Assembly: GCA_964551475.1 (NCBI GenBank)
Contig: CAZKCI010000121.1
Location: 14,308-78,307, forward strand
Direction of reading: 5' to 3'
Source: an uncultured bacterium
GTDB taxonomy: Bacteria; Auribacterota; Erginobacteria; Erginobacterales; CAZKCI01
DNA length: 64,000 bases
The notes below the pieces were generated by a model. The model was not told the origin of the DNA. It saw only the letters and a list, made by a program, of their open reading frames with translations, and ran no database searches. Of this stretch, positions 6,822 through 63,384 are shown one piece after another; the stretch's first letter is position 1, and each line of letters opens with the position of its first letter. The position numbers and the translations under genes were made by a program.

Positions 6822-6970
6822 GGTTATCAGGTTCAGCGGTTCAACGGTTCACGGTTCAACGGTTCGGCGGTTCAACGGTTCAGCGGTTCAGCGGTTCAAC
6901 GGTTCGGCGGTTCGGCGGTTCACGGTTATCGTCATCATTTTCAACCGTTGAACCGTGAACCCTTGAACCG
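6822..6970. repeat. Tandem array of about 12 GGTTCRRC octamers followed by an inverted copy (aaccgttgaaccgtgaacc), forming a long dyad; family A copy 1
   Basis: Direct reading of the sequence; the same architecture recurs at 57458-57600 and 63306-63384, and copies 1 and 3 both begin ggttatcaggttca. Confidence 0.9.
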
Positions 6971-7653: not shown

Positions 7654-8886
7654 TTGAACGATTTCAACGCCCTCAACGATTTGAACGATCCGACACCGAT
7701 CTGCCCCCATTTCGGGGAGTGCGGGGGATGCCGCTCACAGGATATCCCCTACCCTGACCAGCTTGCCGCCAAGGCTGCCCGACTGGAGGAGATCCGCGCC
7801 GCCCACGGCCTGCCGCCGGTCATCCTTCCCCCCGTCCCCTCCCCCGCCCTCTGGCATTACCGGAACAAGATGGAATTTTCCTTCGCGGAGAAGGACGGGG
7901 AGATCATCTGCGGACTTCACCACGCCCAGAGGAAAAAAGAGGTGGTGGATATATCCGAATGCCGCATCTTCTCCCCCGCCGCCGGACCCGTCCTCTCCGC
8001 GGTCAGGGATTTCGCCCGCCAAAGCGGCCTTCCCGCTTATAATCCCTATCGGCGGACCGGTTTTTGGAGAAACCTTGTCCTCCGGGAAGAAAAGAACGCG
8101 AAGGGATTCCTGGTCAACCTGATCACCACCTCACGGGGGGAACCGGACTGGGACGGACTGCGCGTTTCTCTCGCCGGCCTCACCACGGAGAAAAGCGTCT
8201 CCTCCCTGATCCGGACCGTCAACGACTCCGTCTCCGATGCGGTGATCCCGGAAAGGACGACCGTCCTCTCCGGCCCGGGCTATCTGGAGGAGACCGTCGG
8301 CGGATTCGCCTTCCGCATCCATCCCTTCTCTTTCTTCCAAACCAACGTCTTTCTTCTCCCCGAGTTTTACCGCCACCTCGCCGCCGCCGCCGCCCTCACC
8401 GCTTCCGAGAAGGCCCTCGATGTCTTCTGCGGAATGGGGCCGATCAGCCTGCTTCTGGCCCGACAGGCGAAAGAGGTCTTCGGGATCGAGCGGGAGGAGA
8501 CGACGGTCGAAAACGCCCGCCTCAACGCCCGTCTCAACCGGGTGGAGAACGCCGTCTTCATCTCCGGACCGGCCCGGAGGGTATTGGTTGATAACCGCGA
8601 CCGTTGGCGGGGTAGAATAGCCGCGGTGGTCGCCAACCCGCCCCGCAGCGGCATGGGAACGAAAGTCGCCCAACGCATCGCCGAGCTCGAAGCCGGCACT
8701 TTCATCTACTCTTCCTGCCGCCCGGAGTCCTTCTTCCCGGAAGCCGCCCTGTTTTTGAACGACTACGATCTGGAGTCGGTCCGGCCCTTCGATTTCTTCC
8801 CTCACACCCCCCACCTCGAGGTGGTCGGCGTCTTCCGGAGGAAGCAGCCGGGACGGTCGGCGGGGGCGGCGGCCGGCGAGCCATGA
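7654..8886 (+). CDS. 23S rRNA (uracil-5)-methyltransferase, RlmC/RlmD (RumB/RumA) family, without TRAM domain; true start possibly downstream of 7654
   Basis: C-x5-C-x2-C [4Fe-4S] motif (CPHFGECGGC); SAM-dependent MTase motifs (DVFCGMGPISL, ANPPRSG); the first about 13 codons (MNDFNALNDLNDP) are encoded by a short direct repeat. Confidence 0.8.
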   Translation: MNDFNALNDLNDPTPICPHFGECGGCRSQDIPYPDQLAAKAARLEEIRAAHGLPPVILPPVPSPALWHYRNKMEFSFAEKDGEIICGLHHAQRKKEVVDISECRIFSPAAGPVLSAVRDFARQSGLPAYNPYRRTGFWRNLVLREEKNAKGFLVNLITTSRGEPDWDGLRVSLAGLTTEKSVSSLIRTVNDSVSDAVIPERTTVLSGPGYLEETVGGFAFRIHPFSFFQTNVFLLPEFYRHLAAAAALTASEKALDVFCGMGPISLLLARQAKEVFGIEREETTVENARLNARLNRVENAVFISGPARRVLVDNRDRWRGRIAAVVANPPRSGMGTKVAQRIAELEAGTFIYSSCRPESFFPEAALFLNDYDLESVRPFDFFPHTPHLEVVGVFRRKQPGRSAGAAAGEP

Positions 8887-11744
8887 GCCGAGACGGAAAA
8901 CGCCGCGCCGAGGCGCCCTCCCCCCGCCGGACCCGGTCGGCCGCGGGCCAACAAGCTCCCCCGCTCCAGTTGTCCGCGGCCGGGGGCGTCCTGAACAAAT
9001 TCCGCGCCATCTTCGGGGCCGCGCGCGACCCCATCCTGCTCTTCGCCCTCGGCGAAGATTTTCTCCCGACTGCCATCGTCAATGCCAACCCCGCGGCGGT
9101 CCGTCTCCTCGGCCGCTCGCGCCGGGATCTCCTCCGCCTGAATCCCCTGGAACTGATGGGGACGGAACGGCGGAAGCACGTGGAAGAGATTCGCGACATC
9201 CTGCGCCGGCAGGGGGCCTGCGTCTTCATCGATCGCCTCAGAGCGGCGGATGGAACCGCGCGCGAGGTGGAGGTCAGCCTGACCGTCGTCAAGATCGACG
9301 GGCGCACCTTCGCGCTCAACATCAGCCGCGACCTCACCGAACAGCGAAAAACCGAACAGGCGCTGCGGGAATCGGAGCAGACCTTCCTCGCCCTGGCCGA
9401 ACAGTCTCCGACCATGATCTTCATCAACCAGGGCGGGAAGATCGTCTACGCCAACCCTTCCTGCGAAAAACTGATGGGTTACTCCCGGGCCGAGTTCTAC
9501 GCCGACGGCTTCGATTTCCTGAGGCTGATCATGCCGGAACACCATCCCGCTATCCGGGAGAATTTCCAGATCCACCAGAACGGCCAGGAAGTGACGCCGA
9601 TCGAATACGCGCTCCGAACCAAAACCGGGCCCAGGCTGTCGGCGATCACCAGCACCCGCCTGATCTATTTTCGGGGCGGCCGGGCCATCCTGGGCGTGGT
9701 CACCGACATCACCGAGCGCAAACGGGCGGAGGCGGAACTCGAGAACTACCGCCTGAACCTGGAGCAGCTGGTGGAGGAGAGGACGGCGGAGCTCTCCTCC
9801 TCCGAGCAGAAGTTCCGAGCCCTGGTGGACAACATCGCCGTCGGCATTTCCCTGATCAGCCCGGAGATGAGGATAGTGACCCTCAACGCCCAGATGCGCC
9901 GCTGGTTCCCCGCCGCTGACCCCGCCGCCGCCCCTCTCTGCTATCGCAGTTTCAACAACCCTCCCCGGGACCAGGTCTGCTCCTACTGCCCGACCATTCA
10001 GACGCTGCGCGACGGACAGGTCCACGAGGCGGTCACCGAGACCCCGGCCGGGGGAGGCATCGTGAACTACCGGGTCATCTCCTCCCCGATCACCGACTCC
10101 CGGGGAAAGGTGATCGCGGCGATCGAGCTGGTGGACGACATCACCGCCCAGCGGCAAACCGAAGAGGAACTGGAGAAATACCGCCGGCGGCTGGAGGATC
10201 TGGTCCGGGAGCGGACCGAGCAGCTGCGCCGGAGCGAGGAGATCTTCCGGATCGCCGCCCAATCCACCAGCGACCTGATCTACGACTGGGACATCGGCAG
10301 CCAGCGGCTGGAATGGCTGGGCAACATCGACCGGGCGCTGGGGTACGAGTCCGGCGAGTTCCCCCGGACCATCTCGGCCTGGGAAAACGCCATCCATCCC
10401 GAAGACCGGGGGCGGGTGCTGGCCGCCCTCCGGGACCATCTGGAACGCCGCCGGGAGTGGGAGCAGGAATACCGGATCCGCACCAAGGGCGGATCATATC
10501 GCCACTGGCTGGACCACGGCAGCGCGATCCGGACGGCGGACGGAGCCGCCTCCCGGATGATCGGCTGCTGCGCCGATGTCACCGAGAAAAATCGGATGGA
10601 AGAGGAACTCCTGAAGGCCCAGAAACTCGAGTCGGTGGGACTGCTCGCCGGCGGGATCGCCCATGACTTCAACAACATCCTCACCGGCATACTCGGCCAC
10701 ATCTCGCTGGGTCGCCTGATCGCCCCTCCCGAATCAAAAATCGCCCGGACCTTGAGCGAAGCGGAGAAGTCCTGCCTCAGGGCGAAAGCCCTGACCCAGC
10801 AGCTGCTGACCTTCTCCCACGGCGGCGCGCCGGTGAAAAAGGCCGGGCACCTGGGGGCGCTGCTGCAGGAGACGGCGGAGTTTGTCCTGCACGGATCGCG
10901 CATCAAGGTCCGCCTGGCCGTTGCCGACGACCTCTGGCCGGTGGAGATGGACGAGGGCCAGATTTCGCAGGTGATCAACAACATCGTCCTCAATGCCGTC
11001 CAAGCCATGCCCGAGGCGGGCACCATCGCCATCCGGGCCGCCAACGTCTTTCTCGACGGGGAATCCGGCCTCCTCCTGAACCCGGGGCCTTATGTCGAGG
11101 TGGAAATCTCCGACCAGGGGGCGGGAATCCCTTCCGAGCATCTCCCGCGGGTCTTCGATCCCTATTTCACCACCAAGCAGAAGGGAAGCGGCCTGGGCCT
11201 GGCCATCGCCTACTCGATCGTCAAGCACCACGGCGGAGTGATCTCGGTCGCGTCGGAGGCGGGCCAGGGCTCCACCTTCATCATCCGTCTGCCCGCCGCG
11301 CCGGGCGCGGCGATCGCGCCGGCGCCGGAGGCGGAGCTGCCTCCGGTGAGGGGGACGGGGAAAATCCTGGTGGTGGACGACGAGGAAACCGTCCGGAGGG
11401 TGGCCACGGAAATCCTTTCCCATCTCGGCTATGAAGCCAAGGATGCCCGGGGATCGTCGGAGGCGATCGAACTCTACGCCCAGGCCCGCGCCGGGGGGGC
11501 GCCCTTTTCGGCGGTGATCATGGATCTGACCATCCCCGGCGACGTCGACGGGGTGGCGGTGGCCTCCAGGATCCTCGAACTCGACCCCGCAGCGAGGATC
11601 ATCGTCTCCAGCGGCTATGCCGTCTCCCCGATCATGTCCGACTACGCCGCCCACGGTTTCGTCGGGGCGATCGCCAAGCCCTACCAGATCCGGGAGCTGA
11701 GCGAGGTGCTGGGAAGGGTACTGAATCTGAAATCTGAGATCTGA
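8883..11744 (+). CDS. Multi-PAS hybrid sensor histidine kinase (about 4 PAS domains, HisKA, HATPase_c, C-terminal receiver domain)
   Basis: H-box IAHDFNNILTGILGH, ATPase N/G boxes, C-terminal REC (KILVVDDEETVRR...MDLTIPG), repeated PAS signatures; start overlaps the upstream stop (ATGA). Confidence 0.9.
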   Translation: MSRDGKRRAEAPSPRRTRSAAGQQAPPLQLSAAGGVLNKFRAIFGAARDPILLFALGEDFLPTAIVNANPAAVRLLGRSRRDLLRLNPLELMGTERRKHVEEIRDILRRQGACVFIDRLRAADGTAREVEVSLTVVKIDGRTFALNISRDLTEQRKTEQALRESEQTFLALAEQSPTMIFINQGGKIVYANPSCEKLMGYSRAEFYADGFDFLRLIMPEHHPAIRENFQIHQNGQEVTPIEYALRTKTGPRLSAITSTRLIYFRGGRAILGVVTDITERKRAEAELENYRLNLEQLVEERTAELSSSEQKFRALVDNIAVGISLISPEMRIVTLNAQMRRWFPAADPAAAPLCYRSFNNPPRDQVCSYCPTIQTLRDGQVHEAVTETPAGGGIVNYRVISSPITDSRGKVIAAIELVDDITAQRQTEEELEKYRRRLEDLVRERTEQLRRSEEIFRIAAQSTSDLIYDWDIGSQRLEWLGNIDRALGYESGEFPRTISAWENAIHPEDRGRVLAALRDHLERRREWEQEYRIRTKGGSYRHWLDHGSAIRTADGAASRMIGCCADVTEKNRMEEELLKAQKLESVGLLAGGIAHDFNNILTGILGHISLGRLIAPPESKIARTLSEAEKSCLRAKALTQQLLTFSHGGAPVKKAGHLGALLQETAEFVLHGSRIKVRLAVADDLWPVEMDEGQISQVINNIVLNAVQAMPEAGTIAIRAANVFLDGESGLLLNPGPYVEVEISDQGAGIPSEHLPRVFDPYFTTKQKGSGLGLAIAYSIVKHHGGVISVASEAGQGSTFIIRLPAAPGAAIAPAPEAELPPVRGTGKILVVDDEETVRRVATEILSHLGYEAKDARGSSEAIELYAQARAGGAPFSAVIMDLTIPGDVDGVAVASRILELDPAARIIVSSGYAVSPIMSDYAAHGFVGAIAKPYQIRELSEVLGRVLNLKSEI

Positions 11745-11757
11745 GATCTGAGATTTT
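11725..11757. repeat. Short GARATCT heptamer array (ctgaatctgaaatctgagatctgagatctgagattttt) forming the 3' end of the kinase gene and its T-run; family B
   Basis: The last 6 codons (NLKSEI) and the stop codon of the kinase lie inside the repeat. Confidence 0.8.
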
Positions 11758-13241
11758 TATTCGCTCCACCTCCCGGCCATCAACTCGCCGTCCTCCCCGT
11801 CCACCTCCCCGTCTCCGTTAAGATCGGCCGGGCCCGATCCCGTCCCGAAGGCGCTCATCAGAATCCCGTAGTCCCGGCTGTCCACCACGCCGTCGTCGTT
11901 GAGATCGGCGTCGATCGGACGGAGCAGGATCGCCGCGGCATGGGGCGGGAGAGTCAGCGAATCGACGGAGGCAAAGGACAGGCTTCCGGAGGGGAGGCCG
12001 TTCTCCGGGACCGCCCCTCCCCCGCTCGCCGAGACCAGGCGGAAACTCCCGCCCAGATCGGAGATCTGCCGAGTCGCCTCCGCAGGGTTCACCAGCACTA
12101 ATCCTTCCTCGTAATCGCGGCGATAGACGTTCCAGGACGAGTCATAAAGACCGGCGACGGCGGCGGGAATCTCCCCGAGGTAGCCGCCGAGGTCGATCTC
12201 GTATTCAGGGAACCACTCGCAGTCCACCTCCGCCCCGGAGAGCGTGACGTAGGTCTGGTTCCCCTTGATCAGAAGGCAGCAACCGACGAGAAACATCCTC
12301 TCCCGATAGTCGGCGACGGGGGGATCGCACTCGAGAAGCAGGATCTTCCCGGCCCGGGCGAGGGCGAGCAGGCGGTCCATCTGGAGGACCCAGTCGGAGG
12401 GATCATAATAATCCCCCGGCCCCCATTCGCCGAAACCCTCGTTCATGCCTCCGTCGCCCAGGGCGGCGTAATCGGTGGCGTCCCAACCCGTCACCAGGCC
12501 GCCCAGATTGGGGAGAAAATAGAAGTTCTCGGTTTGGGCGGCGAAGGCGGACCGGATGCAGGAAGCATACGATTCCAGGTGGGGTATCCAGCCGGCGAGG
12601 CAGGCATCCACGTCGTTGAACCAGGGATGGGCGCTCGCCACCTGTCCGAAGTAGCCGTCGATGGTGAAGGAATCGGCGAAGACGCCGTCGCACTCGGTCC
12701 GCCGCATCTTCGTGAGGCAGGAGGCGACCCAGTACTCAGGATAGCCGGTGGAGGGAGCGGACCCGTTGCATGTGATGTCCATGACATACCATCCCCAGCC
12801 GCTCTGATGGACTCTCTCCCCTCCCCAGAGAACGAACCAGTCGTCCTGGCCGGAGACCGGTCCCGCGCCGGCATAGGAGCGAAAATCGGCTAGGCCGTCG
12901 TCCCAGTCCTGAACCCAGTCGTCTCCGTCGATGAAATGAAACGGTCCCTGGCCGAGGCCGAGCTGATAATGGAGGACAAGAAAATCCCGGTTGTGGCTCC
13001 GCAAAGTCCTGGCTTCGGAGAGGAGAGCCTTCTGGCAGCCGGCATAATGGGTGGCGGCGAATCGCCACTGTTCGTCCGTAAGCCAGGAAGGAAGCTGGTC
13101 GTAGAAAACGCGGATCTCCTCCCGGGTGTCGGGAAAGGGTCGGCGCGCGGCCGGGGAGAGGGGGGGAAGCGCGAACAGCGCCAGAATCATGGAGGAAAAG
13201 GCAACCGGCCGTCGAGCGATCATGCCTCCCTCTCCGAACAC
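11757..13241 (-). CDS. Secreted protein with putative glycoside-hydrolase-like domain and C-terminal type-I dockerin repeat pair
   Basis: Signal peptide; C-terminal DLNDDGVVDSRDYGILMSAF and DLNGDGEVDGEDGELMAGRW match the dockerin Ca-binding repeat consensus; N-terminal domain not confidently assigned. Confidence 0.7.
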   Translation of the reverse strand: MFGEGGMIARRPVAFSSMILALFALPPLSPAARRPFPDTREEIRVFYDQLPSWLTDEQWRFAATHYAGCQKALLSEARTLRSHNRDFLVLHYQLGLGQGPFHFIDGDDWVQDWDDGLADFRSYAGAGPVSGQDDWFVLWGGERVHQSGWGWYVMDITCNGSAPSTGYPEYWVASCLTKMRRTECDGVFADSFTIDGYFGQVASAHPWFNDVDACLAGWIPHLESYASCIRSAFAAQTENFYFLPNLGGLVTGWDATDYAALGDGGMNEGFGEWGPGDYYDPSDWVLQMDRLLALARAGKILLLECDPPVADYRERMFLVGCCLLIKGNQTYVTLSGAEVDCEWFPEYEIDLGGYLGEIPAAVAGLYDSSWNVYRRDYEEGLVLVNPAEATRQISDLGGSFRLVSASGGGAVPENGLPSGSLSFASVDSLTLPPHAAAILLRPIDADLNDDGVVDSRDYGILMSAFGTGSGPADLNGDGEVDGEDGELMAGRWSE

Positions 13242-13242
13242 A

Positions 13243-13395
13243 GCGATCAGTAATCAGTGATCAGTGATTTCAACTTTCAGATTTGAGATCTCAGATTTGA
13301 GGTCTGAAATTTGAGATCTGAAATCTGAGATCTGAAATTTGAAATCTGAGATCTGAAATTTGAAATCTGAGATTTGAGATTTGAGATTCCGGATC
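13243..13395. repeat. Composite heptamer array: CAGTRAT units (13243-13275) then about 17 YTGARAT heptamers; families C and B
   Basis: Every unit falls on a strict 7-bp phase (ttcagat ttgagat ctcagat ttgaggt ctgaaat ...). Confidence 0.9.
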
Positions 13396-13398
13396 TCC

Positions 13399-14685
13399 TC
13401 ACCTGCTCAACGGTATATCTCCCGCCTGGCCGAAGTAGAAGGACGTGTCCTCCCTGACCTCCCAGAACCCCGTCTCGGGGTGAAAGCAGCCCATCCGCGC
13501 CGTTCCCCCCGTCCCCGTGTAATCGGCCGGAACGGGGATGTCTCCGGCGACGCCCGAAAACACCCGGGTGACGCCGCGAACCGTCCAGAGACCGCTCTCC
13601 GGCCGAAAGAGAGCGACGTCGGCCAAGCCGTTGCCGTCATAATCGGCGGGTATGGGAACATCGCCGGAACGGCCGAAGTTGAGTCGGGTGAGATTCCTCA
13701 CCGCCCAGAGGCCGGCGGAGGGGCGAAAGATCGCCGCTTCGGCTCTCCCGTCATGGTCGAAGTCCGCCGGAACGGGATAGTCGTCGGAGTTTCCAAAAAA
13801 GAAGCGGGTGAGGTTTCTCACCGCCCACCTTCCGTCCGCGGGGCGATAGACGGCGATGTCGCACGATCCGTCTCCCGACCAATCCCCCGGCACGGGAAGG
13901 TCGGAAGCACCCCCGAAATAGATTCGCGCGCCGGTTTTCACGGCCCAGAGGCCGGAAGAGATGCGGTAGACCGCGGCCTCGGCCTTGCCGTCGCCGGTGT
14001 AGTCGCCGGGCGCGGGGATATCGCCGGAAGAACCGAGATAAAAAGAGGTGACTCCCCGGACCGCCCAGAGACCGATGCCGGGACGAAAGAGAACCGCCTC
14101 GGCGGCCGGGTCGGCGTCGTAATCGGAGCTCTCCCCCCGCGGCGGCGGAAAGACCCGATAGCTTCCCCCCCAGACCGCGGAGAGGAGATCGGTCCCCAGG
14201 CCGTCGTCCCTGATCGCGTTGGAATCCCCTCCCGCTCCGGGGGCGAGGAAATAATACGTGAGCGCTATCGGGGAAAAGCATCGGACGGGCGTGGCCAGGA
14301 TATCGGCTACGGCCACCGCGCTGCCGTTGAGGGCGGTCTGATGGGGAGTCCCGACCACCACCTGAACTCTCCCGTCCCCGAAAGTCGAGCGGGCCAGAAA
14401 ACGAAATTGTCCCGGTCCGGGAGGATCGGCGACGTTCGGGGTCACGGAGTCGATGCGGAGAGACGCCGGGTCGTAGATCAGAATCGGGTCGGCGACGACC
14501 ACGGACTCCCCCTGTGTGTCCATCGCCATCCGGAACGGGGAAGGGACGCCGTAATACATGCTTCCCGCGCCGGGATCAAGGCTCAAGGTGGCGGCGATAG
14601 CGCCGGCGGGGAGGGAGAGCGACAGGAAAGCGGCGATGACCCGACGGAAGAGAATCCTCGTCGTCAATCCGGGGCGGATGCGCAT
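13399..14685 (-). CDS. Secreted FG-GAP/VCBS-repeat protein, paralogous to the C-terminal half of the 2914-5151 product
   Basis: Signal peptide starting MRIRPGLTTRILFRRVIAAFLSLSLPAGAIA (ATG 14685); about 6 repeats PxPGDYxGDGxxExAVxRPxxGLWAVRxxTRxxFG. Confidence 0.75.
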   Translation of the reverse strand: MRIRPGLTTRILFRRVIAAFLSLSLPAGAIAATLSLDPGAGSMYYGVPSPFRMAMDTQGESVVVADPILIYDPASLRIDSVTPNVADPPGPGQFRFLARSTFGDGRVQVVVGTPHQTALNGSAVAVADILATPVRCFSPIALTYYFLAPGAGGDSNAIRDDGLGTDLLSAVWGGSYRVFPPPRGESSDYDADPAAEAVLFRPGIGLWAVRGVTSFYLGSSGDIPAPGDYTGDGKAEAAVYRISSGLWAVKTGARIYFGGASDLPVPGDWSGDGSCDIAVYRPADGRWAVRNLTRFFFGNSDDYPVPADFDHDGRAEAAIFRPSAGLWAVRNLTRLNFGRSGDVPIPADYDGNGLADVALFRPESGLWTVRGVTRVFSGVAGDIPVPADYTGTGGTARMGCFHPETGFWEVREDTSFYFGQAGDIPLSR

Positions 14686-14785
14686 ACTAATAGTTAGCAC
14701 GCGAGAAGGGGGAAAGCAAATCAAGGAAGGGGTGTTTCTCCCATTCACCATTCACCATTCCCTATTCCCCATTCACTATCTGTTC

Positions 14786-15547
14786 CTAGGAGATCGTCCC
14801 CCCGATGTACTCCCGGGTCATCTCCTTCTGGGGGTTCCGAAAGATCTCCTGGGCGGGACCGGCTTCGATCAGTTCGCCGAGGTAGAGAAAGACGACGTAA
14901 TCGGCGAGCCTTTTCGCCTGGCGGAGGATGTGGGTGACGATGACGATGGTGTAGTCGTCCTTGAGCTCGAGAAACCTCTGCTCGATTTTCCGGCTCGACT
15001 TGGGATCGAGCGCGGAAGTGGGCTCGTCGCCCAGGATGATCTCGGGCTCCACCGCCAGCCCCCGGGCCAGGCAAAGCCTCTGCTGCTGCCCCACGGAAAG
15101 GCGCGAAGCGGGTTGGGAGAGGCGGTCCTTCACTTCCTCCCAGAGATCGGCTTCCCGGAGATATCTCTCGACCAGCGGGACGAGGATCTTGCGGCTCCTC
15201 GTCCCGTGGATGCGGGGGCCGTAGGCGACATTGTCGTAGATCGACATCGGGAGCACGAAAGGGCGCTGGGAGAGGAGGCCCATCTTCTTGCGGATCGCCG
15301 TCACCTCGACCCGCGGATCGAAGATGTTCTCCCCGTCCACCACGATCTCCCCGGAAATCCGCGCCCCCTCCACCAGATCGATCATCCGGTTGAAGGACTT
15401 GAGCAGAGTCGATTTGCCGCAGCCGGAGGGGCCGATGATCGCGGTGATCTTCTTCTCCGGGATCTCCACCGAGATGTTCTTGAGGGCGGGGGCGGGACCG
15501 TAAGAGACGGAGAGGTTGCGAACACTGATATGGGTCTTGAAGTCCAT
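14786..15547 (-). CDS. pstB: Phosphate ABC transporter ATP-binding protein PstB
   Basis: Walker A GPSGCGKST, signature LSVGQQQRL, Walker B, typical PstB length; start taken at MDFKTH. Confidence 0.9.
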   Translation of the reverse strand: MDFKTHISVRNLSVSYGPAPALKNISVEIPEKKITAIIGPSGCGKSTLLKSFNRMIDLVEGARISGEIVVDGENIFDPRVEVTAIRKKMGLLSQRPFVLPMSIYDNVAYGPRIHGTRSRKILVPLVERYLREADLWEEVKDRLSQPASRLSVGQQQRLCLARGLAVEPEIILGDEPTSALDPKSSRKIEQRFLELKDDYTIVIVTHILRQAKRLADYVVFLYLGELIEAGPAQEIFRNPQKEMTREYIGGTIS

Positions 15548-15585
15548 TTTACGTGTTACGTGCAACGTGCCACGTGCCACGGCCA
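15548..15585. repeat. ACGTGYA heptamer array (acgtgtt acgtgca acgtgcc acgtgcc acgg) between pstB and pstA; family H
   Basis: Same heptamer as the 20940-21010 element. Confidence 0.7.
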
Positions 15586-15632
15586 CCCTGGCAGCGGTTC
15601 ATCGCCTTTCTCCGGTTTCACTCCGCCCTTAT

Positions 15633-16484
15633 CTATCTGACCACATGCCTCGTAAACTTCCTGGCCAGGAGACGGGATAGTAGACTGATCAGAAGAATGA
15701 GTAAAGTGAGGATGAGGGCGGAGGCGTAGGCCCGCTCCCGGACCTCCGGGATGGGCGTGCCGAGCTGGAAGAAGACGGCCAGCGGCAGCGTCGCCGCCGG
15801 GCGCAGGAGCGAGGTGGGAAGAGCGTCGGTAAACCCGGCGGTGAGTATGACCGAGGCGGCGTCGCCGATCCCCCGCCCGAAGGCCAAGAGGATCGCGGTC
15901 ACAATCCCGGGAAGGCTTTGGCGGACGAGGACCTTGAGAGCGGTTTCCAGCCTGGTCGCGCCCAGTGAATAAGACGCTTCGCCGAGCTCGGGCGGGGACA
16001 GCCTCATCACCTCGTCCATCGCCCGGCACATGATCGGCAGGACGAGGAGCGCGACCGTCAGGATCCCGGCCAGGAGCGAGGCCTTGAGTCCCAGGGCGAT
16101 CATCAGCGTGAAACCGAAGGCCCCGTAGACGATGGAAGGCACCCCCCAGAGAACGTCCAGCGAAAAACGGGTGAAGCGGGCGAGGGGCGCGCGGGGATGG
16201 GAGTAGACGTTCAGGTAGAGAACGATCGGAAGGCTCAAGGCCAGGGCGAGTATCGTCGCCCCCCCGGCCAGGAAGAGCGATCCGAGGATGGCGTTGAGCA
16301 CCCCTCCCTCCTTCCCGAGATAGTATCCCCCTTTCGGCGTCTGTGTGATCATCGCTAGGGTCAGGGCGGGAAGGCCCTCGACCACCACCGTGGCGATGAT
16401 CAGACCCAGGGTGAGGAAGATGACGACCGTGGAGGCGATCATCAGCCCCCGGAAGATCCCCTCTTCGATTTTTCTCCCGTTCAT
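15633..16484 (-). CDS. pstA: Phosphate ABC transporter permease PstA
   Basis: Six-TM permease with the EAA-like loop of the PstA family. Confidence 0.85.
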   Translation of the reverse strand: MNGRKIEEGIFRGLMIASTVVIFLTLGLIIATVVVEGLPALTLAMITQTPKGGYYLGKEGGVLNAILGSLFLAGGATILALALSLPIVLYLNVYSHPRAPLARFTRFSLDVLWGVPSIVYGAFGFTLMIALGLKASLLAGILTVALLVLPIMCRAMDEVMRLSPPELGEASYSLGATRLETALKVLVRQSLPGIVTAILLAFGRGIGDAASVILTAGFTDALPTSLLRPAATLPLAVFFQLGTPIPEVRERAYASALILTLLILLISLLSRLLARKFTRHVVR

Positions 16485-24049: not shown

Positions 24050-24094
24050 TGTGGTTATGCCTCAATCATGCCAGCAAACCGGCGGTCAGGCCGT

Positions 24095-24175
24095 CCATTG
24101 TAGGCCGGTTCTGTGAACCGGCGACCAGCCTCGCCGCCCGCTCACAGAGCGGGCCTACAGCCCGCACGACCGAGC
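24095..24175. repeat. GTAG-type REP pair (CTGTAGGCC plus hairpin, then an inverted copy) inside the hydrogenase operon; family E
   Basis: tgtaggccggttctgtgaaccggc ... gcccgctcacagagcgggcctacag; same family at 36538-36600 and 45514-45630. Confidence 0.85.
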
Positions 24176-24181
24176 TATCTC

Positions 24182-25176: not shown

Positions 25177-25215
25177 GGCGTCCGAATTATGCTAGTCCAC
25201 GTTTGCTAGTCGATT

Positions 25216-25335
25216 TTGTGGGAGCGACATTCTTGTCGCGATCCCGGCCAACATGGATCGGGGCAAGATGCCCCTCCCACAGTGACAATTTTTTCGCGCT
25301 TGTAAGTTCTAGTGTGGGAGCGGCGTCTGCCCCAT
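25216..25335. repeat. TGTGGGAGCG...CCTCCCACA palindromic element (one full plus one partial copy) inside the hydrogenase operon; family D
   Basis: Outer inverted termini tgtgggag/ctcccaca enclose GC-rich hairpins; recurs at 27216-27430, 48673-48782 and 53095-53300. Confidence 0.85.
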
Positions 25336-25383
25336 CCCGAAATCTTCTTCGGGACTCGCCGCGATCCAGTCCATCATGGCGCA

Positions 25384-27201: not shown

Positions 27202-27215
27202 AGAGCTATCGCATG

Positions 27216-27430
27216 GTTATATTGTGGGAGCGACATTCCTGCCTGCCCCGATAGTCCCGGCAGAAGTGCGGGACTATCGGGGCCGCGATCCGAGTCAACC
27301 TGGATCGGGGCAAGAATGCCCCTCCCACAATCACACTATCGATCGTGTCTATGTCATTTCTGTGGGAGCGGCGTCTCGCCGCGATCCCTGCCAGCCCGGA
27401 TCGGGCCGAGGACGGCCCTCCCACAAAATC
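27216..27430. repeat. Two family-D palindromic elements between the NuoL-like gene and the hydrogenase large-subunit gene
   Basis: tattgtgggagcgacattcctgcctgccccgatagtcccggcagaagtgcgggactatcgggg...cccctcccaca, plus a second copy at 27355-27425. Confidence 0.85.
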
Positions 27431-27435
27431 ATTCA

Positions 27436-36435: not shown

Positions 36436-36537
36436 CGTGTCACCTCCCCGGGGTTGGTTTCGAGCCCGGCGTATTCGGTTTACTTTCACTTATTAAACTG
36501 GAATACTCGCGGAAGGTTTAACCGATCATGCCTCAGC

Positions 36538-36600
36538 GATGTAGGCCCGCTCTGTGAGCGGGCGTTTCGCCGCCGCCTCACAGAGGCGGCCTACACATAG
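36538..36600. repeat. GTAG-type REP pair (family E)
   Basis: tgtaggcccgctctgtgagcgggcg ... cgccgcctcacagaggcggcctaca. Confidence 0.85.
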
Positions 36601-36612
36601 GTTTTATCGATC

Positions 36613-37563: not shown

Positions 37564-38275
37564 CACAACCCCTTCGGGGTTGATGGCGGCATCGGCTCCC
37601 CCAACCCGGGGTAGCGCCTCCGGCGCAACCCCGGGCTATGCGATGGAATCCCGTTGGGATTCGGCCTCCGGCGACAATGCCAAAAGATCTGGATTGGGAA
37701 TCGATGCCGGAAAACGCTGTTCGACGACGGCTGGTCCCAACAAAATCATCTTCGATCACCCAGACGTCTTGCCCCTGTGAACGCCACTTTGAAAGTTATC
37801 TTCTTCACCCGGTTTGAAATCTCCCTTTCGGGCCGGCGGTCACATGCCCCAACGGGGCAACGTCCCCTAGCCCAGGGTTGCGCCGGAGGCGCTACCCTGG
37901 GTAAACGACACGCATCGCCAGGCCAACCCCAACGGGGTTGTGTCCCCTAGCCCAGGGTTGCGCCGGAGGCGCTACCCTGGGTAAACGGCGCGCAACGACA
38001 GGCCAACCCCAACGGGGTTGCATCCCCTAGCCCAGGGTTGCGCCGGAGGCGCTACCCTGGGTAAACGACACGCAGCGCCAGGCCAACCCCGACGGGGTTG
38101 CGTCCCCTAGCCCAGGGTTGCGCCGGAGGCGCTACCCTGGGTAAACGGCGCGCAACGACAGGCCAACCCCAACGGGGTTGTGTCCCCTAGCCCAGGGTTG
38201 CGCCGGAGGCGCTACCCTGGGTAAACGACACGCAACGACAACCAACCCCAACGGGGTTGCATCAAAGGAGAACGG
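37560..38275. repeat. REP array upstream of the RAYT: one inverted-orientation unit (37560-37690), a diverged spacer, then five tandem 80-bp structured units
   Basis: Unit cccctagcccagggttgcgccggaggcgctaccctgggtaaacgacacgcaacgacaggccaaccccaacggggttgcgt; contains nested hairpins and a GTAG (as CTAC) tetranucleotide. Confidence 0.9.
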
Positions 38276-38277
38276 CT

Positions 38278-38733
38278 ATGCCACAATCGTTGTCATGCGT
38301 CTACGTCCACCTGGTATTTTCGACGAAAAATCGGGTCCCTTTCATTCGGGAGATGGCGCTACGCGCGGAATTGCAGGCCTATCTGGGCGGGATTTCCAAG
38401 ACATTGGAATGCCCGCCAACCATTGTCGGCGGAACGGATGATCACGTACACATGTTGTGTCGTTTGGGGCGGACGATCGCGCAGGCGAATTGGGTCAAGG
38501 AGGTCAAGCGCGTGTCCAGCGCCTGGATCAAGCAACACGATCCGACGCTGGCGGATTTTGCCTGGCAGACCGGATATGGCGCGTTTTCGGTAAGCGTGTC
38601 AAATCTGGAAAAGGTCCAGGCATATATCTCCAACCAGGAAGAACATCATCGTCAACAATCCTTTCAGGACGAATACCGTGCGTTTCTGAAAAAACACGGC
38701 TTGGAATGCGATGAACGGTATATGTGGGATTGA
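38278..38733 (+). CDS. REP-associated tyrosine transposase (RAYT; IS200/IS605-like Y1 HUH transposase TnpA-REP)
   Basis: HUH motif DDHVHMLCRL, catalytic Tyr in AWQTGYGAFSVS, about 150 aa, flanked on both sides by REP arrays; AAAGGAGA RBS 6 nt before ATG 38278. Confidence 0.85.
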   Translation: MPQSLSCVYVHLVFSTKNRVPFIREMALRAELQAYLGGISKTLECPPTIVGGTDDHVHMLCRLGRTIAQANWVKEVKRVSSAWIKQHDPTLADFAWQTGYGAFSVSVSNLEKVQAYISNQEEHHRQQSFQDEYRAFLKKHGLECDERYMWD

Positions 38734-38739
38734 TAGGTG

Positions 38740-39430
38740 TTGACACAACCCCTTCGGGGTTGACGGGGATATTGCTCTCGTATACCCGGGGTAGCGCCTT
38801 CGGCGCAACCCCGGGCTACATGACAGAATCCCTTTGGGATTCGTCCCCCGCAATTGCCCAAAAGGGGCAATGTCCCCTGGCCAAGCATTGCGCCAAAATC
38901 GTCCGATGGAATCCTATTGGGTATTCGGCTCCTGCAACAACGCTGGGATGCCGAGTACGGAAACCTCACCTGCAACACCATCCCAAACAATATTGTGAGG
39001 CATTCGTTAACCCCAACGGGGTTGCGTCTCCTAGCCCAGGGTTGCGCCGAAGGCGCTACCCTGGGTAAACGACACGCAACGACAGGCCAACCCCAACAGG
39101 GTTGCGTCTCCTAGCCCAGGGTTGCGCCGGAGGCGCTACCCTGGGTAAACGGCGCGCAACGACAGGCCAACCCCAACGGGGTTGCGTCTCCTAGCCCAGG
39201 GTTGCGCCGAAGGCGCTACCCTGGGTTAACGACACGCAACGACAGGCCAACCCCAACGGGGTTGCGTCCCCTAGCCCAGGGTTGCGCCGAAGGCGCTACC
39301 CTGGGTAAACGGCGCGCAACGACAGGCCAACCCCAACGGGGTTGCGTCCCCTAGCCCAGGGTTGCGCCGAAGGCGCTACCCTGGGTTAACGACACGCAAC
39401 GACAGGCCAACCCCAACGGGGTTGCGTCCC
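38740..39430. repeat. REP array downstream of the RAYT: inverted-orientation unit (38740-38870), a diverged spacer, then five tandem 80-bp units
   Basis: Same unit as the upstream array; 38740-38870 and 37560-37690 share ttgacacaaccccttcggggttga...cccggggtagcgcc. Confidence 0.9.
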
Positions 39431-40529: not shown

Positions 40530-40554
40530 TCAGTAACTGATCACTGATAACTGA

Positions 40555-40854
40555 TCACTGGTTGATCCCCGGCACTACCTCTCCTTCCGGCAGGGCGGCG
40601 CGGAGCTCATCGTACAGCCGCGACGGATCGCCGGACGGATATTTCTCGTAGCGGACCTTTTCCCAGCCGACACCGATCAGCCCCCAGAGAATTGCCGCCA
40701 GAACACCGATCAGCAACCACCTTTCCTGGACGGTGAGGCGGTCGAGACGGGTCAGCGATAAAAAGCGTTCCTCCGCCGCGATCAGTCGTTGACGAAGGGA
40801 AGACAGGACGCGGGAGAGAGAACGGTCCTGGGCGTCGGGCGCAATCATGAGCAC
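40555..40854 (-). CDS. Small hypothetical membrane protein
   Basis: 99 aa with one central TM helix; lies directly upstream (in transcription order) of the M50 gene. Confidence 0.4.
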   Translation of the reverse strand: MLMIAPDAQDRSLSRVLSSLRQRLIAAEERFLSLTRLDRLTVQERWLLIGVLAAILWGLIGVGWEKVRYEKYPSGDPSRLYDELRAALPEGEVVPGINQ

Positions 40855-43630: not shown

Positions 43631-44353
43631 ATGAACGCGAACACCTACGCTGCTATCGGCGAATCCTTCCCTCCCCTCTCCTCACGGGAACCGGATGCCG
43701 CTTTCGTTGCCCGCTGGGAGAGGGAGAACGAGCGCCTGCGGGAGATCGTCCTGTCGGTCAAGGCCGCCGATGAAAAGGTCAAGGATGAGGTTTTGCGGGC
43801 GGGCCTGATGGACCCCCGAAATGCCGTCATCCGGGAGGAGATCAAGTCCTTCTGCGCCATCCCCTACCGGCGTCGGGAGGGACCGCTCGCCCCCTGCGAG
43901 GGAATCACCTACGGTTGGAAAGGCTGTCCACCCCATTCCCCTCCGGTCGCTGAAACCATCTCGCTCCTGCGCTCCGCCTCCGCCTTCCTCATCCTTCAAT
44001 TCAGCGGCCTCAAGCATCACTCCTTCCAGAAGCACATCCACGAGTTCACGCTCTCGCTGGAAGCGGTTCTCCGGGGAAAGGGATGGAAGGTTCTTCAGAG
44101 CTACAGCACCGGCCCCTGCCGTCTCTGCGCCAAGGGGTGCGCCGAAAGCGGGGACTGCCGTCAGCCTCAGAGGAGACGCTTCGCCCTGGAGTCCTGCGGT
44201 TTCTGGGTGAAGAGCCTCTGCCGGGCGGCCGCCCGCTTTCCCCTCTGCGGAGACGGGGAGTGGGAGATTGAGTGGATCCGGGACTGGAACCTGCCCTCCC
44301 AGTCCCCCCCTACCTACCGGGCGGTGACGGGGATACTGCTGGTACATGGGTGA
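43631..44353 (+). CDS. Cys-rich predicted metal-binding protein (DUF2284-like)
   Basis: Several Cys pairs (CEGITYGWKGC, CRLCAKGCAESGDC, CGFWVKSLC). Confidence 0.6.
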   Translation: MNANTYAAIGESFPPLSSREPDAAFVARWERENERLREIVLSVKAADEKVKDEVLRAGLMDPRNAVIREEIKSFCAIPYRRREGPLAPCEGITYGWKGCPPHSPPVAETISLLRSASAFLILQFSGLKHHSFQKHIHEFTLSLEAVLRGKGWKVLQSYSTGPCRLCAKGCAESGDCRQPQRRRFALESCGFWVKSLCRAAARFPLCGDGEWEIEWIRDWNLPSQSPPTYRAVTGILLVHG

Positions 44354-44651
44354 AGGTTAGGAAGTGGGTCTGGGGGATAGGTCAGGGTCAGGTTAGGCCA
44401 GACGGGCTACACTATTAACCTTACCCATTTACCAGACCATCATCCTTACCCTGACCCATCGACCCCGATGGCAAATGGGTAAGGGTCAGGAAGTGGGCCT
44501 GGGGGATGGGTCAGGGTCAGGTGGGGCCAGACGGGCTACACTATTAACCTTACCCATTTACCAGACCATCATCCTTACCCTGACCCATCGACCCCGATGG
44601 TACATGGGTAAGGGTCAGGAAGTGGGTCTGGGGGATGGGTCAGGTCGATGG
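44341..44651. repeat. About 129-bp structured tandem repeat, 2.4 copies, spanning the DUF2284 stop codon to the nfo stop codon
   Basis: Copies start at 44341, 44469 and 44599; each unit holds internal inverted segments (aaatgggtaagggtcagg... versus ...ccttaccctgacccat). Confidence 0.9.
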
Positions 44652-45494: not shown

Positions 45495-45513
45495 GGCAAG
45501 ATAATTCCGCGGG

Positions 45514-45630
45514 CTGTAGGCCCGTTCTGCGAACGGGCGGCCGGGCTCGAACGCCGGTTCACAGAACCGGCCTACAGTCTCTGACGAAGCGTCCGCCCGC
45601 GGTCGGTAGGCCCGCTCTGCGAGCGGGCGT
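45514..45630. repeat. Three GTAG-type REP units in alternating orientation (family E) between nfo and the aminotransferase gene
   Basis: ctgtaggcccgttctgcgaacgggcgg / gccggttcacagaaccggcctacag / ggtaggcccgctctgcgagcgggcg. Confidence 0.85.
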
Positions 45631-45654
45631 GTGCGGGCCTTGGCTGCCGCTTAT

Positions 45655-46900: not shown

Positions 46901-48664
46901 TCAGGGTTCTATCCTCGCCATCCTCTCCGGGGCGGTCACGCCCATGATCCCGAGCCCCTCGGCGATCACCGCCCGCACCGCCCAGGAAAGGGCGAGGCGG
47001 GCGAGAGTCACCGCCTTCTCTTCCCCGATCACCCTTTGCCGGTTGTAATAATTATGGAAGGCCCCCGCCAGTTCCTCCAGATAGCTGGGGAGGAGATGGG
47101 GCTGGAAGGAGGCGGCGGCCTGGCGCACCAGCTCGGGGAAGGCGAGGACGAGCTTGATCACCTCCATCTCCTCGGGGAGAACCAGGGGAGAGAGATCCGC
47201 CGAGCCGGGATCGGCGAGATCCTCCCCTCCCCCATCCCGATGCTTGCGGAAGATGGAGCAGACGCGGGCGTGGGCGTACTGGACGTAATAGACGGGGTTG
47301 TCCGGGGACTGCTTCTTGGCCAGCTCCAGGTCGAAATCGAGGGGGGACTCCTTGCGCCGGCGGACGAAGAAATAGCGGGCGGCGTCGGTGCCCACGTCCG
47401 CCATCACCTCGCTCAGGGCGACGAACTGGCCGGCCCGGGTGGACATCCGGACCTCCTCCTTCCCCTGGAAAAGCTTGACCAGCTGCACGATGATCACGTT
47501 GAGCCGCTCCGGATCGCGGCCGAGTGCCTGGAGCGCCCCCTTCAGGCGGACGATGTGCCCATGATGGTCCGGGCCCCAGAAGTCGATCAGGAGATCGAAG
47601 CCGCGGGCGAGCTTGCGGACATGATAGGCGATGTCGGAGGCAAAGTAGGTGAGGTCGCCCCCGGTCTTGGTCAGCACCCGGTCCTCCTGGTCGCCATGGG
47701 AGGTGGAGCGGAACCAGAGGGCGTCGTCCCGCCGGTAGGTCTCCCCCCGCCGGTCGAGTTCGGCCAGAACAGAGGCCACCGCGCCGGAGGCGACCAGCTC
47801 CTTCTCGCTGATCCAGGAGTCCATCCGGACGCGGAAACCGGCGAGCTCGGAACGGTTGAGAGCGAGAAGCTCGTCCATGGCGAACTGGGTGCAGAAATCC
47901 AGCGCCGCTTCCTCGGGCAGATCGGAGAGCGCCCGATCCCTTCCCGGAAGAGGGCCGGCCGGGATCTTCTTCGCCACGTCGATCAGGTACTCTCCCCGGT
48001 AGTGGTCCTTCGTGAACTCCGCCGTTTTTCCCCGGAGCTCCTGCCATCGAAGATAGAGCGACTGGCCCAGGTTCCGCATCTGGCGGCCGCGGTCGTTCAA
48101 ATAATACTCCCGCGTCACCCGGAAACCCGCCTTGATGAGGAGGCTGGCCAGCGTGTCTCCCACCGCCGCCTGGCGTCCGTGGGCGACGGTCAGCGGGCCG
48201 GTGGGGTTGGCGCTGACAAATTCCAGGAGGACGCTGCGTCCCTTCCCCTCATCGCTCTCCCCGAAACGGCCGGAGCGGGAAAAGACGGCGCGCAGAGCCT
48301 GCTGGAAGGCGCGGGGGGCGAGGCGGAAGTTGAGGAACCCCTTTTTCGGATCGGCTTCGACGGCCCGGACCGGATAGCGGTCCTTCTCCGGCCGAGTGTT
48401 GATGATCTCGGACAAGACGGCGGCGATGGCGGCGGGCGGGCGGCGGAGGGGGGCGGCCAGACGCATGGCGACGTTGCTGGCGAGATCCCCGTGCGACCGG
48501 TCGCGGGGAGGCTCCAGCACGACGGCGGGCAGGTCGGCTTCCGGCAGGCTGCCCTTTTTCACCGCTTCCCGGAAAGCCTCCCCGACGAGTCCGGCGATCT
48601 TCTGTCGAATCTCGGGCGTCACGATCCTGTTCCTGGGGACATCTGGATCTAGGGGATATCCCAC
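46901..48664 (-). CDS. argS: Arginine--tRNA ligase
   Basis: Class I aaRS with ArgS-specific N-terminal and DALR anticodon-binding domains; 587 aa. Confidence 0.9.
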   Translation of the reverse strand: MGYPLDPDVPRNRIVTPEIRQKIAGLVGEAFREAVKKGSLPEADLPAVVLEPPRDRSHGDLASNVAMRLAAPLRRPPAAIAAVLSEIINTRPEKDRYPVRAVEADPKKGFLNFRLAPRAFQQALRAVFSRSGRFGESDEGKGRSVLLEFVSANPTGPLTVAHGRQAAVGDTLASLLIKAGFRVTREYYLNDRGRQMRNLGQSLYLRWQELRGKTAEFTKDHYRGEYLIDVAKKIPAGPLPGRDRALSDLPEEAALDFCTQFAMDELLALNRSELAGFRVRMDSWISEKELVASGAVASVLAELDRRGETYRRDDALWFRSTSHGDQEDRVLTKTGGDLTYFASDIAYHVRKLARGFDLLIDFWGPDHHGHIVRLKGALQALGRDPERLNVIIVQLVKLFQGKEEVRMSTRAGQFVALSEVMADVGTDAARYFFVRRRKESPLDFDLELAKKQSPDNPVYYVQYAHARVCSIFRKHRDGGGEDLADPGSADLSPLVLPEEMEVIKLVLAFPELVRQAAASFQPHLLPSYLEELAGAFHNYYNRQRVIGEEKAVTLARLALSWAVRAVIAEGLGIMGVTAPERMARIEP

Positions 48665-48672
48665 TCGTTCGA

Positions 48673-48782
48673 TGGTGGGAGCGACATTCTTGCCTGCCCC
48701 GATAGTCCCGGCAGAAGTGCGGGACTATCGGGGTCGCGATCCGAGTCAACCTGGATCGGGGCGAGACGCCCCTCCCACATAT
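48673..48782. repeat. Family-D palindromic element (tattgtgggagcgacattcttgcctgccccgatagtcccgg...cccctcccacatatgg)
   Basis: Near-identical to the 27216-27330 copy. Confidence 0.85.
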
Positions 48783-48836
48783 GGACGAAACAGCGATCAG
48801 TTACCGATCACTGCTCACTTCAGTTTCAGTTACTGC

Positions 48837-49220
48837 TTACTTTAGCTTGGGCGCGTCTCCCCAGAGCGTCTCCAGGGAGTAGAAGGAGCGGACGGCGGGA
48901 AGAAAAACGTGGATGAAGACGTCCCCGCAGTCCATCACCACCCAGCGGCCGGCGCGGAGACCCTCCATGCCCAGGACGGGGATGCCGGCCTTTTCCAGGC
49001 TCTCCTCGATCGCGCGGGCGATCGCCTCCGCCTGCCGTTCATTATGCGCGGTGCAGATAAAAAAGACATCGGCGAGAGGAGTGATCGCGCGCATATCCAG
49101 CGCCACGATATCCTCCGCCTTCTTCTCTTCCGCCGCCGCCCGGGCGATCCGGACGGTCTCCCGCGCGGGCCAGGTCCGTTTCCGGACGGGCGCCTTTCTC
49201 GTCTTCTTCGTGTTTTTCAT
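48837..49220 (-). CDS. rsfS: Ribosomal silencing factor RsfS (Iojap)
   Basis: Iojap family pattern (DIVALDMR...FFICTAHNERQAEAIA...VHVF). Confidence 0.85.
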   Translation of the reverse strand: MKNTKKTRKAPVRKRTWPARETVRIARAAAEEKKAEDIVALDMRAITPLADVFFICTAHNERQAEAIARAIEESLEKAGIPVLGMEGLRAGRWVVMDCGDVFIHVFLPAVRSFYSLETLWGDAPKLK

Positions 49221-53094: not shown

Positions 53095-53300
53095 TATTGT
53101 GGGAGCGGCGTCTCGCCGCGATCCGAGCCAACAGGATCGGGCCGGGGACGGCCCTCCCACATTGACAACTTTTATGCGCGTGTAAGATCCTATTGTGGGA
53201 GCGGCGTCTCGCCGCGATCCGGGCCAACAGGATCGGGGCCCCGATCTTGATATGCATCTAATCGTAATCGGGGCAGGCAGGAATGCCCCTCCCACAATAA
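53095..53300. repeat. Three family-D palindromic element copies upstream of the rplU operon and downstream of rng
   Basis: tattgtgggagcggcgtctcgccgcgatcc...ccctcccaca, three times. Confidence 0.85.
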
Positions 53301-57466: not shown

Positions 57467-57600
57467 CGGTTCAGCGGTTCAACGGTTCAGCGGTTCAACG
57501 GTTCAGCGGTTCAACGGTTCAGCGGTTCAACGGTTCAGCGGTTCAGCGGTTCAGCGGTTCAACGGTTTAAAGGCAACCGTGAACCTTGAACCGTGAACCC
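57458..57600. repeat. Family-A GGTTCRRC octamer array (about 13 units) plus inverted arm
   Basis: ggttcaacggttcagcgg... then aaccgtgaaccttgaaccgtgaacc. Confidence 0.9.
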
Positions 57601-60484: not shown

Positions 60485-60625
60485 GAGAGATAATCTCAGA
60501 TTTCAGATCTCAGATATCGGATCGCGAATCTCGGATTCGGGATTTCGGATCGTGGATCCCGGTTTGAAATCTCAAATCCCAGCTATCAAATCTCAAATCT
60601 GAAATCTGAGATCTCAAATCCTCCG
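60481..60625. repeat. About 20-unit heptamer array whose first half (tYtcRga) is the reverse complement of its second half (ctSaaat), forming a giant dyad between mrdA and mreD; family B
   Basis: tctcaga tttcaga tctcaga ... ttgaaat ctcaaat ... ctgaaat ctgagat ctcaaat, every unit on a 7-bp phase. Confidence 0.9.
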
Positions 60626-63305: not shown

Positions 63306-63384
63306 GGTTATCAGGTTCACGGTTCAGAGGTTCACGGTTCAGGGGTTCACGGTTTTCCCCCCCCAACCGTTGAACCCTTGAACC
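63306..63384. repeat. Family-A GGTTCA-core array plus inverted arm (copy 3)
   Basis: ggttatcaggttcacggttcagaggttcacggttcaggggttcacgg ... aaccgttgaacccttgaacc. Confidence 0.85.

Follow-up and report, generated by a model that had tools for sequence, protein, structure and literature searches.

Within the 64-kb window, as the whole stretch of DNA analysed here is called (source contig in JGI, Ga0393266_0000038), a long run of 7-nt units separates a gene for an FG-GAP/VCBS-like repeat protein from a gene for a secreted GHL15 glycoside-hydrolase-like protein. The initial annotation took this run to be the entire promoter region of the second gene. This leads to the question of how the tract was generated, and whether it is a promoter, a transcribed spacer or a slippage product without effect on its neighbours.

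The array lies between the two genes, as had been proposed, but the strand and start layout described for them did not hold. Both genes are on the minus strand and co-directional, and the array fills the 157-175 bp between them. The upstream gene (13399-14751, minus strand) was recognised by Pfam FG-GAP; in the public annotation it starts at 14685, and the annotated 428-aa product was found exactly. The downstream gene (11757-13223, minus strand) was assigned by Pfam GHL15 (2.8e-31) and has a weak C-terminal dockerin (Dockerin_1, 22.6 bits, just under the cut-off of 22.9); its exact 488-aa product was found on Logan contigs. Among named organisms, the closest homologues of the flanking proteins belong to MAGs of Candidatus Auribacterota/Aureabacteria and the 'PVC group', so that the host is probably a member of Candidatus Auribacterota. 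The start codon of GHL15 is most probably the ATG at 13221-13223, as judged from the GGGAGG that precedes it and from the N-terminus MIA.R, which is common to the orthologue. The GTG at 13241 is merely the first in-frame start of the open reading frame. With the ATG at 13221-13223, the array ends 17 nt upstream of the start codon, and the earlier placement of its first unit 2 nt after the start codon was wrong.

Cutting the sequence into units gave 23 contiguous 7-mers in one register at 13241-13401 (plus-strand letters), in agreement with the single-phase period-7 array originally described. TRF reported CAGTGAT in 4 copies at 13241-13268 and a period of 7 in 16.3 copies at 13275-13388, together with 14- and 21-bp super-periods that point to multi-unit duplications. 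On the plus strand, four CAGYRAT units are followed by TTCAACT, TTCAGAT, TTGAGAT, CTCAGAT and TTGAGGT and then by 12 YTGARAT units. Read in the sense (minus) direction, the FG-GAP stop codon TGA (13399-13401) is itself in register with the array and is followed by 11 nt of degenerate units in the same register (GGAG ATCCGGA, 13388-13398). Next comes the B-type core of 13 direct ATYTCAR units, the last of which reads ACCTCAA (13297-13387; TRF, dimer count and register). It contains a duplicated 21-bp block, ATCTCAG ATTTCAA ATTTCAG. The core is followed by the short arm ATCTGAG, ATCTCAA, ATCTGAA and AGTTGAA (13269-13296), recognised by unit comparison, and by the C-type units ATCACTG, ATCACTG, ATTACTG and ATCGCTG (13241-13268), delimited by the same three approaches as the core. 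A leader of 17 nt (13224-13240), read from the sequence, carries the Shine-Dalgarno (SD) sequence GGGAGG at 13225-13230 and ends at the ATG.

The tract is real and not an assembly artefact, since the gap is identical in two JGI assemblies (3300036982 and 3300037485) and Logan contigs (SRR11848694 and SRR12667042) confirm both of its ends, with breaks only at the duplicated 21-bp block. Within-population copy-number variation was not seen between these two sister-sample assemblies, and the Logan contigs break inside the tract. Palindromy of the unit was considered as a selected feature and dropped, because positions Y3 and R7 do not co-vary (6 palindromic versus 7 non-palindromic core units).

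A periodicity scan for stringent arrays (four units or more, with a self-identity of 80% or higher) yielded 12 period-7 arrays in the window, against a mean of 0.01 per shuffle in 100 composition-preserving shuffles. Two stringent arrays had a period of 8, and none in the window had a period of 9-12. All 12 stringent heptamer arrays lie within or edge the 12% of the window that is non-coding, and all have a GC content below the 64% of the genome (32-40% for the 13241-13401 tract). B-type dimers gave 29 matches where 0.2 were expected, at three loci (11727-11754, 13267-13387 and 60493-60619), and C-type dimers gave 5 where 0.01 were expected, at two loci (13241-13268 and 40540-40560). Both families thus recur elsewhere in the window, as had been stated. 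The additional C-type locus proposed at 48786-48845 has no clean dimer and is at best degenerate.

The two unit families appear to be related, as was first suspected. The consensus units of B (ATCTCAG) and C (ATCACTG) agree at 5 of 7 positions when aligned in the register observed and at no more than 3 of 7 in every other register, which suggests that they probably share descent and fits an origin of C from mutated B units that were then amplified. A single mechanism, slippage, generating both families is plausible. The units at 13269-13296, which look irregular, are a strand-switched arm and not noise when compared unit by unit. The reverse complement of ATCTCAG, once rotated, is ATCTGAG and matches the B unit at 6 of 7 bases; since the two differ by one base, the switched arm keeps the phase of the array.

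The composite tract is not alone, and the dispersed population of such repeats suggested from the outset was borne out: about 20 arrays of 7- or 8-nt units, from more than 10 unrelated unit families, were found in the 64 kb, in or edging the non-coding 12%. They fill nearly every gap of the co-directional cluster pstS-pstC-pstA-pstB-FG-GAP-GHL15, and an array is also present in the gap between mreD and the PBP2 gene (mreD-mrdA). Often an array abuts a stop codon on one side and a start codon on the other, and several consist of two inverted arms, one long and one short, that give strong hairpins when folded. A second B-type array of 5 units (11721-11754, minus strand; TRF, dimers) occupies the convergent gap at the 3' end of the GHL15 gene. 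The final 7 codons of a PAS/histidine-kinase gene (8883-11744, plus strand) and its stop codon lie within this array, which also abuts the stop codon of the convergent GHL15 gene. The other B-type locus (60492-60620, plus strand; TRF, dimers), in the mreD-PBP2 gap, contains in-phase mutated sub-families (ATYNCGG) and strand-switched units, and is oriented oppositely relative to its genes. The other C-type locus (40533-40563, plus strand; TRF, dimers) consists of four alternating TAACTGA/TCACTGA units. It fills the gap before an M50 peptidase gene, abuts the ATG of that gene and is likewise in the opposite orientation relative to the genes, so that the orientation of B and C arrays relative to genes varies among the loci of the window. 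Octamer arrays of GGTTCARC with up to 13.5 units were observed at 6830-6970, 57460-57599 and 63314-63384, each followed by a short inverted arm and thereby forming a long hairpin. A 129-bp tandem repeat (2.3 copies, 94% identity) was seen in the convergent gap at 44346-44644.

These positions bear on the proposal that the promoter region of GHL15 coincides with the tract or lies inside it, the tract acting as a phase-variable spacer in which the number of units would alter promoter geometry. The tract does constitute all the DNA upstream of GHL15 back to the previous stop codon, and in three related lineages (L124, L140 and L149) the right-arm units of the corresponding gap read CTATAAT, with a perfect -10 hexamer. 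However, a scan of 11500-15800 for sigma-70-like promoters and intrinsic terminators found nothing in the tract (13224-13398), which is weak evidence in this phylum. The FG-GAP and GHL15 genes are co-directional, arrays of the same kind occur inside the pstSCAB and mreD-mrdA operons, where a promoter is not expected, and none of the four divergent gaps of the window, where promoters would lie, carries such an array. A promoter function is therefore quite unlikely, and the claim that the array represents the entire promoter region is not upheld; the tract is more likely a slippage-made transcribed spacer. A Pho-box interpretation, suggested by the position of the tract after pstSCAB, was rejected as well, as the tract has no spacer between its units. 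Pho boxes are 7-bp repeats at 11-bp spacing.

Syntenic loci from 4-5 related lineages, with proteins 76-79% (GHL15) and 70-74% (FG-GAP) identical to those of the window, were compared gap by gap. Five of the six cluster gaps compared keep short-period arrays in each of the 4-5 lineages, even where the unit type has been replaced. The gap after pstB holds 6 TRGTGAA units in the window and 2-3, 8 and 4-5 units in other lineages. In the gap between pstS and pstC there are 3 ATTCGRA units in the window and 4, 5 and 3 elsewhere. The gap before pstB has one arm of 5 CGTNNCA units in the window, and in the other lineages 7 units, an inverted pair, or an unrelated inverted pair of AGGTGTM units. The variation in unit number that was to be sought by cross-strain comparison is accordingly seen at orthologous gaps in related lineages. 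The FG-GAP-GHL15 gap itself contains an inverted pair of AGATTAT-type units in L124, L140 and L149, spanning 87-93 bp in the first two; the L149 contig ends inside the right arm. In a further lineage (L147/L148, 74-77% identical proteins), the gap opens directly after the stop codon with AGATCTC, AGATCTC, AGATCTC and AAATCTC. At its other end, a run of at least 7 ACTGATY units stops 18 nt short of the ATG; the contigs break inside the tract. By sequence comparison, the order of B and then C is conserved in this lineage with a different copy number of C. At the 3' end of GHL15, L147 carries a B array of about 11 units, compared with 5 in the window.

The same comparison was used to weigh the possibility that the tract is neutral junk, a slippage product without effect on its neighbours, in which seeded SSRs regenerate faster than they decay. 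Several results agree with this: the unit sequence at the target gap is not conserved between lineages (B/C versus AGATTAT-type), and an Rfam scan of the whole window returned no family at gathering score. On the other hand, all 4-5 lineages retain short-period arrays in five of six gaps despite unit replacement, two lineages whose proteins are about 75% identical have the B-to-C order in common, and the arrays abut stop and start codons precisely. At pstB (15546-15632), which has no SD, a heptamer array leads directly into CACGTAAAATG, a start context that three lineages (window, L124 and L135) conserve. Pure neutrality sits uneasily with the retention of arrays in these gaps. We regard it as possible, though clearly less probable than a spacer that is also transcribed.

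A sister species provided an observation on the gap next to floA. Strains L124 (19505-19601) and L125/L126 (19505-19699) are 99.9% identical over 19.5 kb and differ only in this gap, which is an octamer hairpin in one strain and, in the others, an unrelated hairpin of ATTCGAA/ATCCGAA arms followed by a T-run. The identity of the flank on the floA side falls to 98.3-99.0%. Of the GGTTCARC arrays, the one that follows floA and precedes the next gene counts 12 units in the window and 4 in the sister species. Short-read contigs of these organisms (L001, L002, L135, L137, L147, L148 and L152) were found to end in or beside heptamer arrays at almost every gene boundary; heptamer tracts thus systematically fragment short-read assemblies of these organisms.

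Replacement of a whole gap cassette between strains that are 99.9% identical could also be expected of a mobile or recombination-spread element of the MITE or REP kind, by which the B, C and octamer families would have been copied between gaps. Unit families do recur, with 2-3 loci each within 64 kb, and the window encodes a RAYT-like Y1 transposase. Yet nothing but the repeated unit is common to the B, C and octamer loci: a shared non-repeat or palindromic core, terminal inverted repeats and target duplications are all absent, and loops and flanks differ. The cassette swap coincides with the lower identity of one flank (98.3-99.0% versus 99.9%), which fits homologous recombination. REPs are characterised by a conserved palindromic consensus and by their link to RAYT transposases. 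Like the enterobacterial REP/BIME elements, the arrays are small structured elements in operon gaps that would be transcribed here, and they vary between strains. Unlike them, the tract has no conserved palindromic consensus, and the REP-like elements found elsewhere in the window, the kind associated with RAYT, are different sequences. Spread as a mobile element is accordingly very improbable.

The RAYT-like gene is an IS200-like Y1 transposase ORF at 38278-38733 (Pfam Y1_Tnp, 3.4e-22), flanked by two 80-bp tandem-repeat arrays of 5.2 copies each (37847-38260 and 39009-39428). One REP-like palindromic family, GTGGGAGCGRC ... CCCTCCCACA, is present in several gaps (25177-25383, 27202-27435, 48653-48790 and 53098-53300), and a second, GTAGGCCSG.TCTG.GA.CGGGCG with an inverted partner, in the gaps 24050-24181, 36490-36612 and 45495-45654.

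If the tract is transcribed in the direction of the genes, its two arms could pair. An AU-rich imperfect hairpin of 8+8+4 bp, formed by core units and the switched arm, was predicted by folding of the sense RNA at 13277-13328 (minus strand; -20.7 kcal/mol, z -3.2, equalled by none of 200 shuffles), and the fold of the whole sense-strand gap has a z of -2.6. The hairpin is weak, and the antisense strand folds better owing to G-U pairs (-70.3 versus -58.8 kcal/mol for the sense strand). Orthologous gaps also fold into hairpins with heptamer arms, with -28.5 kcal/mol (z -5.9) in L149 and -48.7 kcal/mol (z -7.3) for the pstA-pstB gap of L124. The co-directional genes and the lack of a predicted promoter in the tract are compatible with leader transcription, but no more than that.

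A precedent for such a leader is the (ATCTTTC)n tract of Haemophilus influenzae hmw1A/hmw2A, which is transcribed and cleaved by RNase III, with expression inversely dependent on copy number (PMC12721329). In each case a heptamer SSR precedes a gene whose product is secreted or at the cell surface, the number of units differs between lineages, and a long left repeat arm is paired with a short arm on the right, within the leader RNA in hmw1A and by prediction in the present tract. The 20-bp pairing predicted here is AU-rich and weaker than the antisense fold. In contrast to hmw1A, tracts of the same kind occur here in housekeeping operons, so that this is not a dedicated contingency locus.

The C-type units next to the ribosome-binding site recall the TAACTGA direct repeats of Beggiatoaceae, cyanobacteria and Bacteroidetes, for which a role in translation has been proposed (MacGregor 2015, PMC4679880). 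Those repeats occur in 2-6 forward copies a few nucleotides from the start codon, usually replacing the RBS; TAACTGA is almost the sole repeated heptamer in that genome, and 'split' sets with related 7-mers were described (PMC4679880). In the corresponding rotation, the units at 13241-13268 read TCACTGA, TCACTGA, TTACTGA and TCGCTG(T), which are four copies oriented forward to the ATG but each with at least one mismatch to TAACTGA. Exact TAACTGA units occur in the window only at 40533-40563, where the array abuts an ATG in reversed orientation. The C units differ further from the TAACTGA cases in that 17 nt with a canonical SD separate them from the ATG, in that they form the tail of a longer composite tract, and in that dozens of unit types exist here.

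By analogy with these systems, the tract might provide a platform for a regulator that binds RNA or DNA sequence-specifically, the C units by the RBS recruiting or blocking ribosomes or a Csp-, S1- or CsrA-like protein. Such a function could be read from the near-TAACTGA units 17 nt from the ATG, from their retention and expansion (at least 7) in a second lineage, from the exact TAACTGA array that ends at the start codon of the next gene, and from published work, including the TAACTGA study (PMC4679880) and heptamer effects on recO/recF reporters in Nostoc. However, the more than 10 unrelated unit families in 64 kb would call for many regulators, the 40533 array is reversed relative to its genes, the C units are separated from the ATG by a canonical SD, in contrast to the Beggiatoaceae cases, and C-type arrays were absent from the 120 other genomes sampled. 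We therefore consider a binding platform improbable.

How widespread the units are was assessed by a genome-collection scan. Runs of at least four ATYTCAR units were found in at least 120 species genomes, a number that measures breadth and not over-representation; the source genome is not among the matches listed. The matches listed come from Planctomycetota, Acidobacteriota, Bacteroidota, Cyanobacteriota, Verrucomicrobiota, Hydrogenedentota, Patescibacteria and other phyla. C/G strand switches of the same kind are frequent in these arrays, which often border directly on another heptamer family; two-family composites are common. None of the matches listed (at least 120 genomes) has a C-type array beside a B-type array in another phylum, which makes the combination of B and C lineage-specific. 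In the 836 kb around the matches listed (120 genomes), there are 264 period-7 arrays as against 0-17 for each other period, and these use 94 canonical units. The dominance of period 7 with so many units indicates a constraint on length and not on sequence, and the variety of units is a further point in favour of neutral slippage. Among the matches listed, 60 B arrays were in co-directional, 10 in convergent and 9 in divergent gaps against a baseline of 327, 65 and 76, and no clear preference for gap type or orientation emerged. This too suits a neutral origin, and the inconsistent orientation argues against a strictly RNA-level role of the family. Thirty 'in-ORF' B arrays among the matches listed are probably an artefact, as ATYTCAR has no stop codons.

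The features above place the tract in the known class of heptanucleotide repeats (LSSR, STRR-like and TAACTGA-like), in a new host. Long SSRs with units of 5-11 nt, including a heptanucleotide class in which length and not sequence is constrained, were described by Mrazek, Guo and Shah in 2007, as cited in PMC4679880. As far as the class can be judged from that account, its properties are shared: uninterrupted head-to-tail arrays of 7-nt units (among the 1-11 nt allowed) beyond chance expectation, mostly in non-coding DNA, sporadic across phyla and with period 7 dominant. The number of units differs between lineages at orthologous arrays and is identical in the two assemblies of the source population. 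Different from that account are the density of about 20 arrays in 64 kb, the filling of intercistronic gaps in conserved operons and the many hairpin-forming inverted pairs. Genome-wide intergenic tandem heptamers in several unit families, often near start codons and suspected of regulatory roles, are also a feature of cyanobacteria, as with the heptamer repeats of Nostoc (bioRxiv 10.1101/2022.06.06.494920). A search of the literature found no report of such repeats in Candidatus Auribacterota. Cyanobacterial STRR heptamers were reportedly described by Mazel and co-workers in 1990. The STRR families are few and defined (STRR1-3) and belong to heterocystous cyanobacteria. The units here (ATYTCAR and ATYACTG) are other sequences than STRR1-3 and come from another phylum, where units are many and lineage-specific.

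From the sequence evidence, we consider it probable that the tract is a slippage-generated, internally differentiated heptanucleotide SSR that forms the spacer of GHL15 and probably a transcribed leader. The array would grow in place by slipped-strand mispairing in steps of 1-3 units; mutated units would be secondarily amplified, giving rise to the C sub-array, and an occasional strand switch would leave a short inverted arm. The same in-phase drift of units at the 60492 array and the different copy numbers at orthologous gaps speak for such a process. The tract would be tolerated because it lies in non-coding DNA, and it would by now have become the whole FG-GAP-GHL15 spacer. It is most probably transcribed together with its co-directional neighbours, and the RNA would be either intercistronic or the 5' leader of GHL15. 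The transcript would then have TYACTGA repeats beside the ribosome-binding site and, about 50 nt ahead of the ATG, an AU-rich hairpin. By analogy, a change in unit number may alter the length and structure of the leader and thereby affect how stable the GHL15 message is or how well it is translated.

Two points are not accounted for by slippage alone: the restriction to periods 7 and 8, and the retention of an array in each of these gaps by every lineage. A more far-reaching reading, rather unlikely on the present evidence, would be that in this lineage the 7- and 8-nt arrays are maintained genome-wide as intercistronic RNA modules, often hairpin-paired, that set the processing, stability or SD-independent translation of cistrons. 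Unit number and type would then act as an evolvable 'dial', and a dedicated period-7 mechanism, in place of generic slippage, would possibly create or keep the arrays.

If the ordinary reading of a slippage-generated SSR is true, the tract is one more case, in a poorly studied candidate phylum, of the long-known and unexplained excess of heptanucleotides in bacterial intergenic DNA. It is also a clean comparative case, since the arrays persist in the same operon gaps while copy number, unit sequence and one- or two-arm architecture turn over. This pattern bears on why a period of 7 is favoured, and on whether such arrays are tolerated junk or, like the hmw1A tract, tunable elements of leaders and intercistronic regions.
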